The position numbers were made by a program, and so were the translations under genes. Of a stretch of DNA of 64,000 nt, positions 10,860 through 62,588 are shown in pieces; the first letter of the stretch is position 1, and each line of letters begins with the position of its first letter. A model generated the notes under the pieces. The model did no database searches. It worked only from the letters and a program-made list of their open reading frames with translations, and had not been told where the DNA came from. The stretch comes from Escherichia phage PBM-1, in sequence record PV029540. One strand, written 5' to 3'.

Positions 10860-10872
10860 TGTATTTATACTA

Positions 10873-10900
10873 AAAAGCCCCAACCTTTCGGTCGGGGCTA
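10873..10900 (-). terminator. rho-independent terminator after the tRNA/stable-RNA transcript
   Basis: Minus strand GC hairpin (GCCCCGACC..GGTTGGGGC) followed by TTTTT. Confidence 0.6.
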
Positions 10901-11210
10901 AGCCTTGCGGCAACCTTGTCGGGGTTCCACCTGCTAAGGCAAGTGTTTGTACGAAACGCCGGGATTCGAACCCGGTTATTAAGCAGTTGACGCTACTCAA
11001 TATTTTTAAAAGGCCATATCTCGACCATATCCGAACGTTCCGTCAAAAACGCTACTCGGCTTACGGCAAAGATATTTCCTCGAATCGATAATTCTGCGCG
11101 CCGTTTCTGCTGTGATGTAAGGGGACATTAACAGATCATAAAGATTTGTTAATGCCAGTCCTTACCCAGGGAACATCAGTCCGACGACTTACCGGTAGCG
11201 ACCCGGTTTC
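10900..11210 (-). ncRNA. possible small stable RNA(s) or degenerate tRNA downstream of the tRNA cluster
   Basis: ~300 nt without ORFs between gene 11211-11561 and a terminator; tRNA T-arm-like CCGGG-TTCGAAT-CCCGG near 10959-10975 but no complete cloverleaf found. Confidence 0.3.
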
Positions 11211-11561
11211 TTAATATTCTTTTAAAGCATCAATCTGTTCACGGCGTTTACGCCATAAATCAATTACTTCATACGCAGATTCAGCATTTCGAATTGGACG
11301 GCATTTATATAAAGACTTGTGATTTTGATATTGCGTAGATAATGGAATTTTATCTAAAAGGTCTTTACGTTCAAAGTATTCGTAACCATCTAAGCCAAAT
11401 GAACGATTTTTGAGAAATTGCCAATGACCATATTCGTTTTCGACATAAACATAATCCGCGTGTTGATAAAGCAAATTAATTACACGTTCAGAAATAATAG
11501 TGTCATTGTGATTAAAATAAAATGTTAAATCATGAACTACTAAATAAACATTACCTTTCAT
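11211..11561 (-). CDS. hypothetical protein (116 aa)
   Basis: ORF just downstream of tRNA cluster in transcription direction. Confidence 0.45.
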   Translation of the reverse strand: MKGNVYLVVHDLTFYFNHNDTIISERVINLLYQHADYVYVENEYGHWQFLKNRSFGLDGYEYFERKDLLDKIPLSTQYQNHKSLYKCRPIRNAESAYEVIDLWRKRREQIDALKEY

Positions 11562-12271: not shown

Positions 12272-12880
12272 TTATATATTGTTAATTTGATTTAGAATTC
12301 TTTTTGCTTGAGTATGACTTACGCCAATATGCTTAGCATATTTAGATAATTCGCCTCGTTTAGAAAAATCATATAATTTAGAAATTTCTATTCTTCTTTT
12401 TCTTTCATCCGCAGAAACTTTTGCTTCGTTTGCTTTTGCTATTTTACGTTTAGCTTCTTGAGAATGAGTTTTACCAGCAAAGCCATTCTTCATTAATCCA
12501 TTTGAAGACCATCCTTTTAATTTTCCGTTAGAATGTGCCTTTTTAACACCCAATGAAATTAATTCACGTTGCTGATCTGTCATAGGATAATTATTTATAT
12601 GATCCCATCCACCTTCACCACCAAGTTTTAAATTATACACATCTGATCTATTTAAAAACTCTTCTGTGACAATATTTTTCTCGGCTTCAAGCATAGATTC
12701 TTTATCATCAAAATACTCTAATATTTCTTTAGAAAAATTTTCTATACCATACTTATCTTGGGCTCTTTTTAATAATTTACCGGAACCCATATATCCATCA
12801 TCTAAATTTTCGGTAGAATGCACACCAATATAAATTTTATTATTAATTTTATTTGTTATTTTATAAAGATAAAAATGCAT
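12272..12880 (-). CDS. GIY-YIG homing endonuclease (SegB-like)
   Basis: ORF 12272-12922; GIY-YIG motif YLYKITNKINNKIYIGVHS near N-terminus if started at Met15; embedded in tRNA cluster as segB is in T4. Confidence 0.75.
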   Translation of the reverse strand: MHFYLYKITNKINNKIYIGVHSTENLDDGYMGSGKLLKRAQDKYGIENFSKEILEYFDDKESMLEAEKNIVTEEFLNRSDVYNLKLGGEGGWDHINNYPMTDQQRELISLGVKKAHSNGKLKGWSSNGLMKNGFAGKTHSQEAKRKIAKANEAKVSADERKRRIEISKLYDFSKRGELSKYAKHIGVSHTQAKRILNQINNI

Positions 12881-12926
12881 ATCAGTCCCTAATAAAGAAC
12901 TGAGCGTCTCACGACGAGTCATAAAT

Positions 12927-13082: not shown

Positions 13083-13098
13083 CCATTCTCGCGCTATA

Positions 13099-13707
13099 TT
13101 ATTTATTACGTGAAAAAGATTGTTCTATCAGCTCTGGACACTTTCGTTCTATCCATTTTCTAGCTTTTTGTGGGCTTATACCTATTATTTTAGCAGCTTT
13201 ACTAACCCATCCAAATTTAGAATAATCAATTTTAACTAATTCTTCGTAAATTTCATCAGTTAAAATGTTTTCATTAATATTTACCAGTAAATGATATAAT
13301 TTATTATCATTAGCAATTTTAATGAATCTTTTATAGTTTCCGCCTTTACTTAAACCTAATGAAGTAATTGCAGATGATATAGTAGCCGAATTTAATAATG
13401 CGTTTAAAATTTCTTCATCACTAACATTATAACGCTTTTTATTATTTTTAATATTTTTACCAGCAAAAGTATCAGTTTGCGAATGGCAATTTGGACATAA
13501 TAATCTTAAATTTGATTTAAGATGATTTTTATTATTTCCGTCAATATGGTCTAATTGCAGAACAATATGTTTATTTTGCCATTTTGAAATTTTACAAATT
13601 GCGCACTCATATGGAAAAATATTTTCTTTTATTATTTTATCTTTCAGCTTTCCTGTACTAAAATTTGGATGTTTTCCTTCAAAAATTTCAGCTAATTTAG
13701 TATCCAT
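13099..13707 (-). CDS. HNH homing endonuclease
   Basis: ORF 13099-13731 (first codon TTG); HNH/zinc-finger signature CAICK...LQLDHIDGNNKNH...CPNCH. Confidence 0.7.
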   Translation of the reverse strand: MDTKLAEIFEGKHPNFSTGKLKDKIIKENIFPYECAICKISKWQNKHIVLQLDHIDGNNKNHLKSNLRLLCPNCHSQTDTFAGKNIKNNKKRYNVSDEEILNALLNSATISSAITSLGLSKGGNYKRFIKIANDNKLYHLLVNINENILTDEIYEELVKIDYSKFGWVSKAAKIIGISPQKARKWIERKCPELIEQSFSRNK

Positions 13708-13817
13708 AATATGATTCCCAATTATTAACAAAGGCTCTTAAGCAAGAACCCTTGATGATAGAGGGTATTAATCAGTACGGTATGAGTTAATAATAACAAA
13801 TAATTCTTAAAGCATAT

Positions 13818-14111
13818 TTACCATTTATGATAATACATATTTACGATGCATTCAAGATCTAAAGGATTCTTGAAAATATCATATTCAAGAGGACCTTTTT
13901 CCGTTTCAATAAAGAAATCAAAGTTAACTGTGTTAAATTTACGGTCTTCCTTCACTAATTTAACTTGAGAAGATGAACGGTCAATGTAAACCTTTTCAAC
14001 TTCAAAACATGTTAAAATGCCATAATCATCAATCAAGGCTTTAGCCGCGTCTTGATCATATTTATATCCATTTTCAATAGACGATACTTTAGCATAAAGA
14101 ATCATCATCAA
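13818..14111 (-). CDS. hypothetical protein (97 aa)
   Basis: ORF; ATGA coupling with upstream gene. Confidence 0.5.
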   Translation of the reverse strand: MMMILYAKVSSIENGYKYDQDAAKALIDDYGILTCFEVEKVYIDRSSSQVKLVKEDRKFNTVNFDFFIETEKGPLEYDIFKNPLDLECIVNMYYHKW

Positions 14112-14515
14112 CCTCTATCAACAATAGCATGAGTATGGGCATTTACGATTTGCCACCAGTCGAAACGATTAGAACCGTATTCTGGTTTATTTTCATTTTC
14201 TTTAATGATATCACGCAGTTTATCTTCCGTTTCAGCATACGCAATTAAATCATCATATCCACCGCAAGGATAATAATTATCACCTGCGAATAAAAGAAAA
14301 TTTACCTTAGATGGGTTTACGTAATAATGGTCTTTAGGATATTTAGTTCCTCTCCAATCAGTTACTTCAACATAACGATAAGAAAATCCATTTTTACTTT
14401 CAATCCAACTCCACGCTTCAAAAGGAGTATTAAAAACTTTATCAGGTATTAAATTACCTTCAAAATGAGAAGGATTTGCATAATCCCCAGCATAAACATA
14501 ATATTCGTTACTCAT
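14108..14515 (-). CDS. hypothetical protein (135 aa)
   Basis: ORF; aromatic-rich, no recognisable motif. Confidence 0.5.
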   Translation of the reverse strand: MSNEYYVYAGDYANPSHFEGNLIPDKVFNTPFEAWSWIESKNGFSYRYVEVTDWRGTKYPKDHYYVNPSKVNFLLFAGDNYYPCGGYDDLIAYAETEDKLRDIIKENENKPEYGSNRFDWWQIVNAHTHAIVDRG

Positions 14516-14701
14516 TTATTCACCTTTAGAAATTTTATCCATAACGATAGCAATTAAACCAATTAAAAATGCTACTACAAGTGAAAAAACATTTTCTGCC
14601 GTAGTCAATAATCCGCATATAAATCCAACAAACATTGAAAAACTGAAAGCGGAAGCAGAAATTGCAATAGCAACATTTCGAATTAATTCACAACGTTTCA
14701 T
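14516..14701 (-). CDS. small hydrophobic membrane protein (~61 aa)
   Basis: ORF 14516-14806; upstream part is a promoter element; start at Met36 with GAGGAG SD. Confidence 0.4.
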   Translation of the reverse strand: MKRCELIRNVAIAISASAFSFSMFVGFICGLLTTAENVFSLVVAFLIGLIAIVMDKISKGE

Positions 14702-14710
14702 TTTATTCTC

Positions 14711-14770
14711 CTCAGTAGTTGATAGGGTAATAGTATCACTACCCCATCTAAAAGTAAACTTATTTTTTAC
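14711..14770 (-). promoter_or_regulatory. T4-type early promoter
   Basis: Minus strand GTTTAC-N18-TACTAT upstream of small membrane ORF. Confidence 0.5.
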
Positions 14771-14993
14771 GAAAAATTGATTTATTTTCTGCTGCCCATT
14801 TTTCAATAACTACAGCAGGACCAGTAACAACAATTTTATCACCGTAATCTTCTGCGGCGAGTTGACCGAAATTATCTAATGCATCACGAAGAACTCCATG
14901 AGGCATTTCACCCATTTTATCTTTCTTGCCGGTGTAAATAAACTCAACTTTTACATCAGAAGATTCAGCGATAAACTCTTTGAAAGTTTTCAT
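14760..14993 (-). CDS. internal-protein-like capsid-targeted protein (~77 aa)
   Basis: N-terminal MKTFKEFIAES capsid-targeting-like sequence from Met5; conserved early promoter upstream. Confidence 0.6.
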   Translation of the reverse strand: MKTFKEFIAESSDVKVEFIYTGKKDKMGEMPHGVLRDALDNFGQLAAEDYGDKIVVTGPAVVIEKWAAENKSIFRKK

Positions 14994-15019: not shown

Positions 15020-15080
15020 TTGATAGGGTAATAGTATCACAACTAAAACCCTATGTAAACAACTTTGTGAAATTATTTTA
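15020..15080 (-). promoter_or_regulatory. T4-type early promoter
   Basis: Minus strand GTTTACA-N17-TACTAT upstream of IP-like gene; shares ~30 nt with 15350-15410. Confidence 0.5.
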
Positions 15081-15330
15081 AATCTTCTAATCGTTTCTTC
15101 ATCTTAGAACCATTTTTAGCAATTTCTCCTGCATCGGAGCATAACGCTAAAAGTGCTTTAACTTTAGTTTGGTCTCCTTTAAAAGATGAAGGATCGACTG
15201 CAGCAGCAAGTTCTTTAATACGAGAGAAAAGACGCTCAGCTTCAGCTAAAGCCATTCCAAGCTTTACTTCCATACCGTGGGAAGATTCAGTGATAGTAGT
15301 TTTTGCAGCAAACTCTTTGAAAGTTTTCAT
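15073..15330 (-). CDS. internal-protein-like capsid-targeted protein (85 aa)
   Basis: N-terminal MKTFKEFAAKT capsid-targeting-like sequence; conserved early promoter upstream, near-duplicate of the one at 15020-15080. Confidence 0.6.
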   Translation of the reverse strand: MKTFKEFAAKTTITESSHGMEVKLGMALAEAERLFSRIKELAAAVDPSSFKGDQTKVKALLALCSDAGEIAKNGSKMKKRLEDLK

Positions 15331-15349
15331 TTTATTTTCCTAATTAATT

Positions 15350-16099
<750 letters not shown>

Positions 16100-62246: not shown

Positions 62247-62346
62247 AGTAAGCGTTTAATACATCAATCATTAAAACGATTGGGAATATACTCAAAACTA
62301 CTAGTATTATAACTACATTCCATATAGCTTTAACAATCTTTTTCAT
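62233..62346 (-). CDS. small hydrophobic peptide (~37 aa)
   Basis: ORF 62233-62442; upstream part is a promoter element; start at Met33. Confidence 0.4.
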   Translation of the reverse strand: MKKIVKAIWNVVIILVVLSIFPIVLMIDVLNAYFGFM

Positions 62347-62359
62347 TTTCTGTTCCTCC

Positions 62360-62420
62360 GTAGTTGATAGGATAATAATACCACAGAGGAACAGTCTTGT
62401 AAACAACTTTTTAAAAATAT
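62360..62420 (-). promoter_or_regulatory. T4-type early promoter
   Basis: Minus strand GTTTACA-N17-TATTAT. Confidence 0.5.
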
Positions 62421-62588
62421 TCGTAATAAATGTGAATACCAATCACTACCGCTGAAACTTGCGCAACCCACCACGCACAAGCAATAAGTACAGAATTCAA
62501 AATTTTCATAATAACCTCATTACAAAAGTAAATGTTAAACAAATTAATGGAATACTAATTAACCAAACAAAACACCACCACAATGAAC

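Follow-up and report, generated by a model that had tools for sequence, protein, structure and literature searches.

Here we analysed a 64,000-nucleotide stretch of Escherichia phage PBM-1 (PV029540; hereafter the window), in which three small open reading frames (ORFs) lie end to end on the minus strand at 13818-14701, between a tRNA cluster and a locus of internal (capsid-targeted) protein genes. An earlier note, made from the letters of the window, had described them as three unknown small genes. The ORFs were found as described, and family matches, the ratio of nonsynonymous to synonymous substitution rates (dN/dS) and mass spectrometry of the T4 counterparts mark them as real genes. They are not new genes: sequence comparison identifies them, with very little doubt, as the orthologues of trna.4, trna.3 and trna.2 of phage T4, which have been catalogued since 1985 and still lack a function. 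In the 1985 T4 record X03016 the same genes are listed as ORF2, ORF3 and ORF4 behind the early promoter PE1, and the T4 counterparts have the UniProt entries P13322 (trna.4), P13323 (trna.3) and P13324 (trna.2).

Layout and expression of the trna.4-trna.3-trna.2 genes

All features in this section lie on the minus strand, and transcription runs from trna.4 through trna.3 to trna.2. The first gene, trna.4 (14516-14701), encodes a putative two-helix inner-membrane peptide of 61 amino acids (aa) from its ATG, with a Shine-Dalgarno sequence, GAGGAG, read at 14708-14713. The 135-aa product of trna.3 (14108-14515) comprises a hypervariable N-terminal domain (aa 1-70, 14306-14515) and a conserved C-terminal domain of ~65 aa (aa 71-135 and the stop codon, 14108-14305). 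The third gene, trna.2 (13818-14108), encodes 96 aa from the ATG at 14108 or 95 aa from the ATG at 14105. Sizes of 135 and ~61 aa had been given correctly in the earlier note, whereas its 97 aa for the remaining gene came from a mechanical TTG start at 14111. Plus-strand ORFs of 30-41 aa inside the region are without any support and were dismissed.

The TAA of trna.4 directly abuts the ATG of trna.3. At the next junction, TGATG, the stop codon of trna.3 (TGA, 14108-14110) and the trna.2 ATG at 14108 share 1 nucleotide (nt), and stop-start overlaps of 1-4 nt occur between the same two genes in T4, PEi20, F48, STML-198 and SA79RD. trna.2 is translationally coupled to trna.3 through this junction; the coupling had been proposed before, with an ATGA overlap that is not present.

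An early promoter equivalent to T4 PE1 lies at 14730-14759. It consists of a -35 hexamer GTTTAC (14754-14759), an 18-nt spacer and a -10 hexamer TACTAT (14730-14735) preceded by TG (TG-n-TACTAT). The internal-protein gene upstream ends, with its stop codon, right next to it. From the -10 hexamer to the start codon, the sequence is base-for-base identical to the PE1 region of X03016. The promoter scores 8/12, below the threshold of a generic promoter scan, which hence missed it. The earlier note had assigned an early promoter to the membrane peptide and placed that peptide last. The promoter is there, but the peptide comes first, and because trna.4 is promoter-proximal, the promoter most likely serves all three genes. 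A hairpin at 14721-14748 (RNA fold -17.4 kcal/mol, z = -2.64) overlaps the -10 region; its T4 counterpart is annotated as a potential IpI terminator, which PE1 overlaps as well (X03016). Just 3' of trna.2, the sequence at 13790-13816 was mapped by alignment as the equivalent of the T4 middle promoter PM2, which X03016 places between trna.2 and the tRNAs. The surrounding intergenic region (13732-13817) aligns gap-free with T4 and is almost identical to it. Almost certainly, the early PE1 transcription unit has the trio as its protein-coding leader, located between the internal-protein locus and the tRNA cluster.

In T4, trna.2 and trna.3 belong to the early class for both RNA and protein and trna.4 to the early class for RNA (PMC9697503 supplement). 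The Trna.2 and Trna.3 proteins were seen by mass spectrometry, and Trna.4, which is tiny and hydrophobic, was not detected (PMC9697503).

DNA identity to T4 is 96.4% over the whole region, with protein identities of 100% for Trna.4, 98-100% for Trna.3 and 95% for Trna.2. Gene order in the window follows that of T4 from gene 53 across the tRNA region, with a few cassettes replaced. At the trio, PBM-1 and T4 agree in gene order, in the PE1 promoter, in how the genes join and in the flanking gene 57B, whereas T4 has ipI where PBM-1 carries two other internal-protein genes, and tRNA-Gln where PBM-1 carries an HNH gene. Each protein matches one PHROGs family: Trna.4 matches phrog_1692 (E = 6e-35, residues 1-61 of 61), Trna.3 matches phrog_1411 over its whole length (E = 8.7e-51) and Trna.2 matches phrog_2023 (E = 7.8e-48). 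Precomputed Pfam annotation of database homologues gives PF26870 (Trna.4), PF26894 (Trna.3) and PF27001 (Trna.2), recent accessions that are absent from the Pfam copy used for our scans.

Protein architecture, conservation and allelic variation

Trna.3 is acidic (isoelectric point, pI, 4.9). Its AlphaFold model (mean predicted local distance difference test score, pLDDT, 83.8; predicted template modelling score 0.51) contains two small alpha/beta units, each built as strand-helix-strand-strand. The C-terminal domain (C-domain) carries the motif FLLFAGDNYYPxGG..D...FDWWQIVN..TH.IV., and an alignment of 18 family sequences has 21 invariant columns and includes the C-terminal block NFLLFAGDNYYPxGGYxDL...FDWWQIVNA.TH.IV. 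A hidden Markov model (HMM) of the C-domain matches Trna.3 at E = 1.4e-30. An exhaustive profile search of 1.84 billion proteins with Trna.3 gave 320 representatives at E <= 1e-3; besides a handful of full-length T-even-type proteins, their matches are confined to profile positions ~64-127. Most of these relatives stand alone, are 55-100 aa long and conform to the consensus YLLFAGxxYYPxGGxxDF...DWWQIVDxxTxxIV. They come from many phage lineages and from metagenomes, and they fall in PHROGs 17649 and 4811, for which no function is annotated. One relative carries an N-terminal helix-turn-helix domain. The domain had no match in the Pfam copy scanned, and a protein of 2031 aa with seven C-domain profile matches was rejected as a low-complexity repeat protein whose matches are spurious. 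BFVD models of 60-70 aa superpose with template modelling scores of 0.7-0.86 (normalised to the target), and the BFVD search returned uncharacterised phage proteins only.

Solitary copies also occur at the locus itself. The trna.3 slot of STML-198 holds the C-domain alone (70 aa), and PEi20 (locus L003, 2931-3122) and F48 (locus L004, 2952-3137) have an extra stand-alone copy of 61-63 aa between trna.4 and trna.3. A tblastn search with the C-domain consensus returned almost exclusively T-even trna.3 genes. Trna.3 has a domain (residues 71-135) in common with the stand-alone ~65-aa phage proteins, but it adds a variable N-terminal half and occupies a fixed T-even locus.

The N-terminal half itself resembles the domain that follows it. 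Aligned by hhalign with the C-domain family, it gave P = 2.4e-4 over 47 collinear columns at 44% probability, against P = 0.1 and no relation for a control alignment of Trna.2 with the Trna.3 C-domain. An HMM of the N-terminal half also matches members of the stand-alone family end to end and collinearly at E ~1e-3 (149 sequences). These alignments are suggestive of a diverged copy of the C-domain, which the N-terminal half probably is.

The two halves differ sharply in how they vary. The N-domain is 29-49% identical to other alleles and the C-domain 72-88%. In AR1 and ASO78A, gp1, 57B, Trna.4 and Trna.2 are 91-100% identical to those of the window, with 29-48% identity in the N-terminal half of Trna.3 and 84-86% in its C-terminal half. 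Phage Bas37 (KarlGJung, MZ501089) carries a different Trna.3 allele: its gp1, 57B, Trna.4 and Trna.2 are 96-100% identical to those of PBM-1, while its Trna.3 has an overall identity of 64.4% and differs mostly in the N-terminal half. Synonymous divergence (dS) is ~1 in trna.3 against 0.02-0.28 in the flanking genes; therefore these are old alleles exchanged by recombination. Trna.3 proteins at least 90% identical to that of the window were found in 94 of 765 records, compared with ~505-510 for Trna.4 and Trna.2. The internal-protein locus shows the same replacement of alleles between close relatives as the N-domain, and the allele pattern of Trna.3 would fit the signature of an arms race. What is new here is that many phages encode the C-domain of Trna.3 as a protein by itself, and that the N-terminal half, apparently a diverged copy of it, is hypervariable even among phages that are otherwise nearly identical.

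In Trna.4, two hydrophobic stretches (approximately residues 9-33 and 37-55) lie between charged termini, in agreement with the two-helix membrane peptide described in the earlier note. The peptide forms a predicted inner-membrane hairpin, and both termini are probably in the cytoplasm. An N-terminal MKRxExIRN motif and the residues S22, G26, L32, E36 and M54 are invariant across genera, and the PBM-1 protein has the traits of its family (59-61 aa, two helices, MKRxExIRN) and is encoded by the first gene past the internal-protein locus, a placement shared with six other phages. No other member of the trio is as conserved as Trna.4, for which 428 of 790 records show 99% identity or more. In STML-198 a second small membrane ORF (locus L005, 3104-3289) lies between trna.4 and the trna.3 slot.

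We surveyed the distribution of the genes by tblastn against 50,697 phage records. The trna.4 query matched 790 records, trna.3 765 and trna.2 803; gp1, used as a control, matched 1430 records in all and 683 at 60% identity or above. Essentially every genome at the Tequatrovirus or Mosigvirus level has the trio, as do a hundred or so others. Kanagawavirus PEi20, Marfavirus F48, Gelderlandvirus STML-198, one Mosigvirus and several Tequatroviruses all share the gene order 3 - 1 - 57A - 57B - internal protein(s) - trna.4 - trna.3 - trna.2 - tRNAs. The earlier note had pictured accessory cargo wedged between mobile elements; with the trio in ~765-803 records and at the same position across five genera, that argument falls. 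Indeed, the presence/absence comparison that the note had suggested found conservation at this position in T-even genomes, an outcome the note itself had named as counting against its view.

All three genes are under purifying selection. Against other T-even phages, dN/dS is 0-0.19 for trna.4, 0.08-0.42 for trna.2, 0.06-0.16 for the C-terminal half of trna.3 and 0.30-0.69 for its N-terminal half. Between Tequatrovirus and Mosigvirus, Trna.4, Trna.2 and 57B are 84-86% identical, compared with 59-63% for the essential gp1 and for 57A. Neither Trna.2, Trna.4 nor the C-domain has a paralogue elsewhere in the window.

Downstream of the trio, many T-even phages have a fourth conserved gene, of 159-171 aa, directly 3' of trna.2, among them AR1, ASO78A, an RB69-like Mosigvirus and STML-198 (loci L006 3186-3701, L007 3195-3710, L008 3152-3667 and L005 3791-4270). 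T4, Bas37 and the PBM-1 window are without it.

Neighbouring genes

Upstream of the trio lies the gene for a 77-aa internal protein, IP77 (14760-14993, minus strand; phrog_8111), whose mechanical 81-aa ORF starts four codons too early. IP77 is the orthologue of Bas37_0260, to which it is 93.5% identical and which was shown to inhibit McrBC type IV restriction in the HIDEN-SEQ preprint (bioRxiv 10.1101/2025.11.20.689424). Gene 57B, encoding the anti-CBASS nuclease Acb1, follows at 15403-15858 (minus strand) and is 100% identical to T4 57B. Across genera its identity is 76-85%, compared with 27-65% for the adjacent essential gp1 and 57A. The setting is thus a neighbourhood of proven anti-defence genes, in keeping with the earlier note, which had called it a reasonable place to look for an anti-defence function. 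Both internal-protein genes start with MKTFKEF, a capsid-targeting N-terminus of the MKT(F/Y)xEF type. No capsid-targeting sequence is present in the trio, whose proteins start with MKRCELI (Trna.4), MSNEYYV (Trna.3) and MMILYAK (Trna.2). Each of the two internal-protein cassettes (15020-15090 and 15325-15410, minus strand) has its own copy of one promoter and 5' leader, in which 17 nt separate TTTACA from TACTAT with TG. The leader occurs a third time at about 62341-62421, presumably ahead of another internal-protein gene.

On the other side of the trio is a gene for an HNH homing endonuclease (13099-13707, minus strand; 202 aa from the ATG at 13707; phrog_14736, E = 2.9e-123). Within 13093-13740 (minus strand), between the conserved region downstream of trna.2 and tRNA-Leu, it replaces tRNA-Gln exactly; all that is left of that tRNA is TGGGAAT (its first 7 nt) and AGC (its last 3 nt). 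Bas37 has the identical architecture of tRNA-Leu, HNH, trna.2, trna.3, trna.4, IP77, IP85 and 57B, with bas37_0259, bas37_0258 and bas37_0257 as the counterparts of trna.4, trna.3 and trna.2. Identities are 99.5% for the HNH protein, 100% for Trna.4, 95.8% for Trna.2 and 100% for 57B.

The downstream cluster comprises nine tRNAs in PBM-1, eight in T4 and two in the Mosigvirus compared, and an Rfam scan returned tRNAs only. The PBM-1 set differs from that of T4 in lacking Gln, Pro and Ile and in having Met, Tyr, Asn and His. Between tRNA-Gly and tRNA-Ser lies a gene (12272-12922, minus strand) for a GIY-YIG endonuclease, part of which has 98% identity to T4 SegB; T4 segB sits elsewhere. A 116-aa ORF with no T4 counterpart at that place (11211-11561, minus strand) lies between tRNA-Arg and homologues of rnaD/rnaC (10867-11211), which are 94% identical to T4.

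Candidate functions of the trio

Scans of the three proteins against Pfam, NCBIfam and PADLOC gave nothing above threshold, and PADLOC returned no defence-system family at E <= 0.1 for any of them. Weak matches to DUF5092, DUF7554 and TusC, far below their cut-offs, were rejected. PHROGs contributed only families lacking known function, and a sequence profile search of the PDB (E <= 1) yielded nothing for Trna.2 and one chance-level match for Trna.3. No sequence or fold similarity was found to characterised anti-defence proteins, including Acb1, Acb2, Tad, Ocr/Arn-type mimics and IPI. These results agree with the earlier note, which had recognised no motif. Searching the literature for the gene names and UniProt accessions returned only the DRT1, T4 omics and HIDEN-SEQ studies and the SegB paper, whose 'trna.2' is a different ORF, from T2L.

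In the pull-down reported for the defence reverse transcriptase DRT1, T4 Trna.2 and Inh were the sole T4 proteins enriched with the wild-type enzyme over the reverse-transcriptase-dead mutant (PMC13275509). Trna.2 is an acidic 11-kDa protein with a pI of 4.8.

We favour, at about an even balance of probability, a reading in which the trio encodes non-enzymatic early proteins that bind components of the host or of host defence. There is no sign of an enzyme among them: Pfam, NCBIfam and PADLOC gave no match above threshold and the PDB none beyond chance level, and the two soluble proteins combine small size with a low pI (4.8-4.9). The proteins would act stoichiometrically and, in the manner of the adjacent Acb1 and internal proteins, be useful only on particular hosts or in particular conditions. 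The variable N-terminal half of Trna.3 would be the surface that recognises the target. Trna.2, which would be made in a fixed ratio with Trna.3, may be its partner, and it would contact, among others, the active form of DRT1. The trio resembles Acb1, IPI and Bas37_0260 in its early region, small size, conserved position and dispensability on laboratory hosts; it differs from them in sequence and fold and in lacking 2H phosphoesterase motifs. A bolder version seems doubtful to us, with a probability well below that of the general reading. In it, the ~65-aa 'YYPxGG...DWWQIVD' domain would be the core of a widespread and as yet unrecognised class of phage counter-defence proteins, as a small ligand sponge or protein-binding module, duplicated in T-evens with one copy diversifying to track host targets, and Trna.2 would be a direct modulator of DRT1, either inhibitor or trigger.

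Several observations weigh against the reading we favour, most of them from the HIDEN-SEQ preprint (bioRxiv 10.1101/2025.11.20.689424). There, T4 trna.2, trna.3 and trna.4 are classed as 'Non-essential', with 92-97.5% of TA sites hit, and bas37_0257, bas37_0258 and bas37_0259 are non-essential in the Bas37 transposon library; with the T4 omics data, this supports early expression and laboratory dispensability, in line with the early promoter and accessory character proposed in the earlier note. Insertions in the T4 trio were neutral on K-12, and the trio was unchanged against an independently built library (Data S3, REF versus delta-rnlA). On the uropathogenic strain CFE299 the log2 fold changes were 0.13 for trna.2, 0.25 for trna.3 and 0.06 for trna.4, none of them significant. 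On CFT073, bas37_0257-0259 were neutral, and the flanking bas37_0260, bas37_0261 and bas37_0262 (Acb1) were significant. In the tables examined, the other screens of the preprint (RexAB, RnlAB, DarTG1/2, M9 medium, Mokosh and other clinical isolates) report none of the trio. As for DRT1, the authors left Trna.2 without follow-up (PMC13275509), and a pull-down cannot tell a trigger, an inhibitor and a bystander apart. The predicted model of Trna.2 is unreliable (pLDDT 48.7), the statistics for an internal duplication in Trna.3 are weak (the 44% probability given above), and a housekeeping-like role would fit equally with near-universal conservation and with how little Trna.4 varies.

On the hosts tested, the negative transposon screens make an anti-defence role less likely, but they cannot exclude it: in HIDEN-SEQ, genes of this kind score only on the right host. 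Nor does conservation exclude it, because the neighbouring Acb1 gene is equally conserved. Conservation above that of some essential neighbours, combined with dispensability in all screens so far, suggests a conditional function not yet sampled.

Other explanations were weighed on the same evidence. The trio could aid the expression, processing or protection of the downstream tRNAs, or the ORFs could simply be a translated leader of their precursor. In Tequatrovirus, Mosigvirus and Kanagawavirus the tRNA cluster always follows it directly and is encoded on the same strand, with PE1 upstream of the trio and PM2 between trna.2 and the tRNAs, and early transcripts of the PE1 unit reportedly extend into the tRNA genes (Broida and Abelson, in 1985). 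However, the proteins show no RNA-binding, nuclease or modification motif, and the soluble ones are acidic. The tRNA content varies widely, to the point that tRNA-Gln was replaced by the HNH gene, while the trio stays unchanged, and the C-domain occurs alone in many phages with no known tie to tRNAs. Purifying selection at the amino acid level shows that the proteins matter, not translation alone. We therefore consider a tRNA-linked role improbable. An origin as recently acquired cargo, travelling with the adjacent homing endonucleases, is harder still to sustain and has in our view next to no probability. The HNH gene on one flank and the SegB-like GIY-YIG gene a little further away would suit it, but the HNH gene is found in just 63 phage records, Bas37 included, against ~790 for the trio, and it cleanly replaces tRNA-Gln, which lies outside the trio. 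In T4 the trio occurs with no HNH gene beside it. Because of these counts, and because the position and order of the trio are conserved across genera, it is the HNH gene that is mobile, inserted next to a resident trio.

A third alternative centres on Trna.4, which could make an early change to the inner membrane (superinfection exclusion, injection control, lysis timing or ion homeostasis; compare Imm, Sp, Ac and RI of T4) with Trna.3 and Trna.2 as partners or passengers. The size, early timing and membrane location of Trna.4 resemble those of Imm and Sp, the superinfection exclusion proteins of T4. The two-helix hairpin with charged termini, early expression, the invariant cytoplasmic MKRxExIRN motif and the promoter-proximal position of trna.4 all point in this direction, as do its standing as the best conserved gene of the three and the second small membrane ORF that adjoins it in STML-198. 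Against it, the Pfam scan detected no homology between Trna.4 and Imm or Sp and no match to any superinfection-immunity family, giving only a sub-threshold hit to DUF7554 (E = 0.064). T4 Trna.4 escaped detection by mass spectrometry, and insertions were neutral in single-infection screens, though these would miss exclusion of a second phage. To our knowledge, no exclusion phenotype is known for Trna.4. On balance a membrane module seems unlikely, and early proteins that bind host or defence components remain the reading we prefer.

As a discovery of genes the result is minor, since these ORFs have been on the T4 map for forty years and all T4-type genome annotations list them as hypothetical. 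The trio nevertheless offers better candidates for follow-up than the average T4 ORFan. Trna.3 joins a constant, shared domain to a half that is swapped, as in the neighbouring internal proteins with proven anti-restriction activity, and Trna.2 has one unexplained physical tie to the defence system DRT1. The architecture and hypervariability of Trna.3 and the link between Trna.2 and DRT1 are modest but testable leads. A function, once assigned, would carry over to the annotation of ~800 sequenced phages and of a wider domain family.

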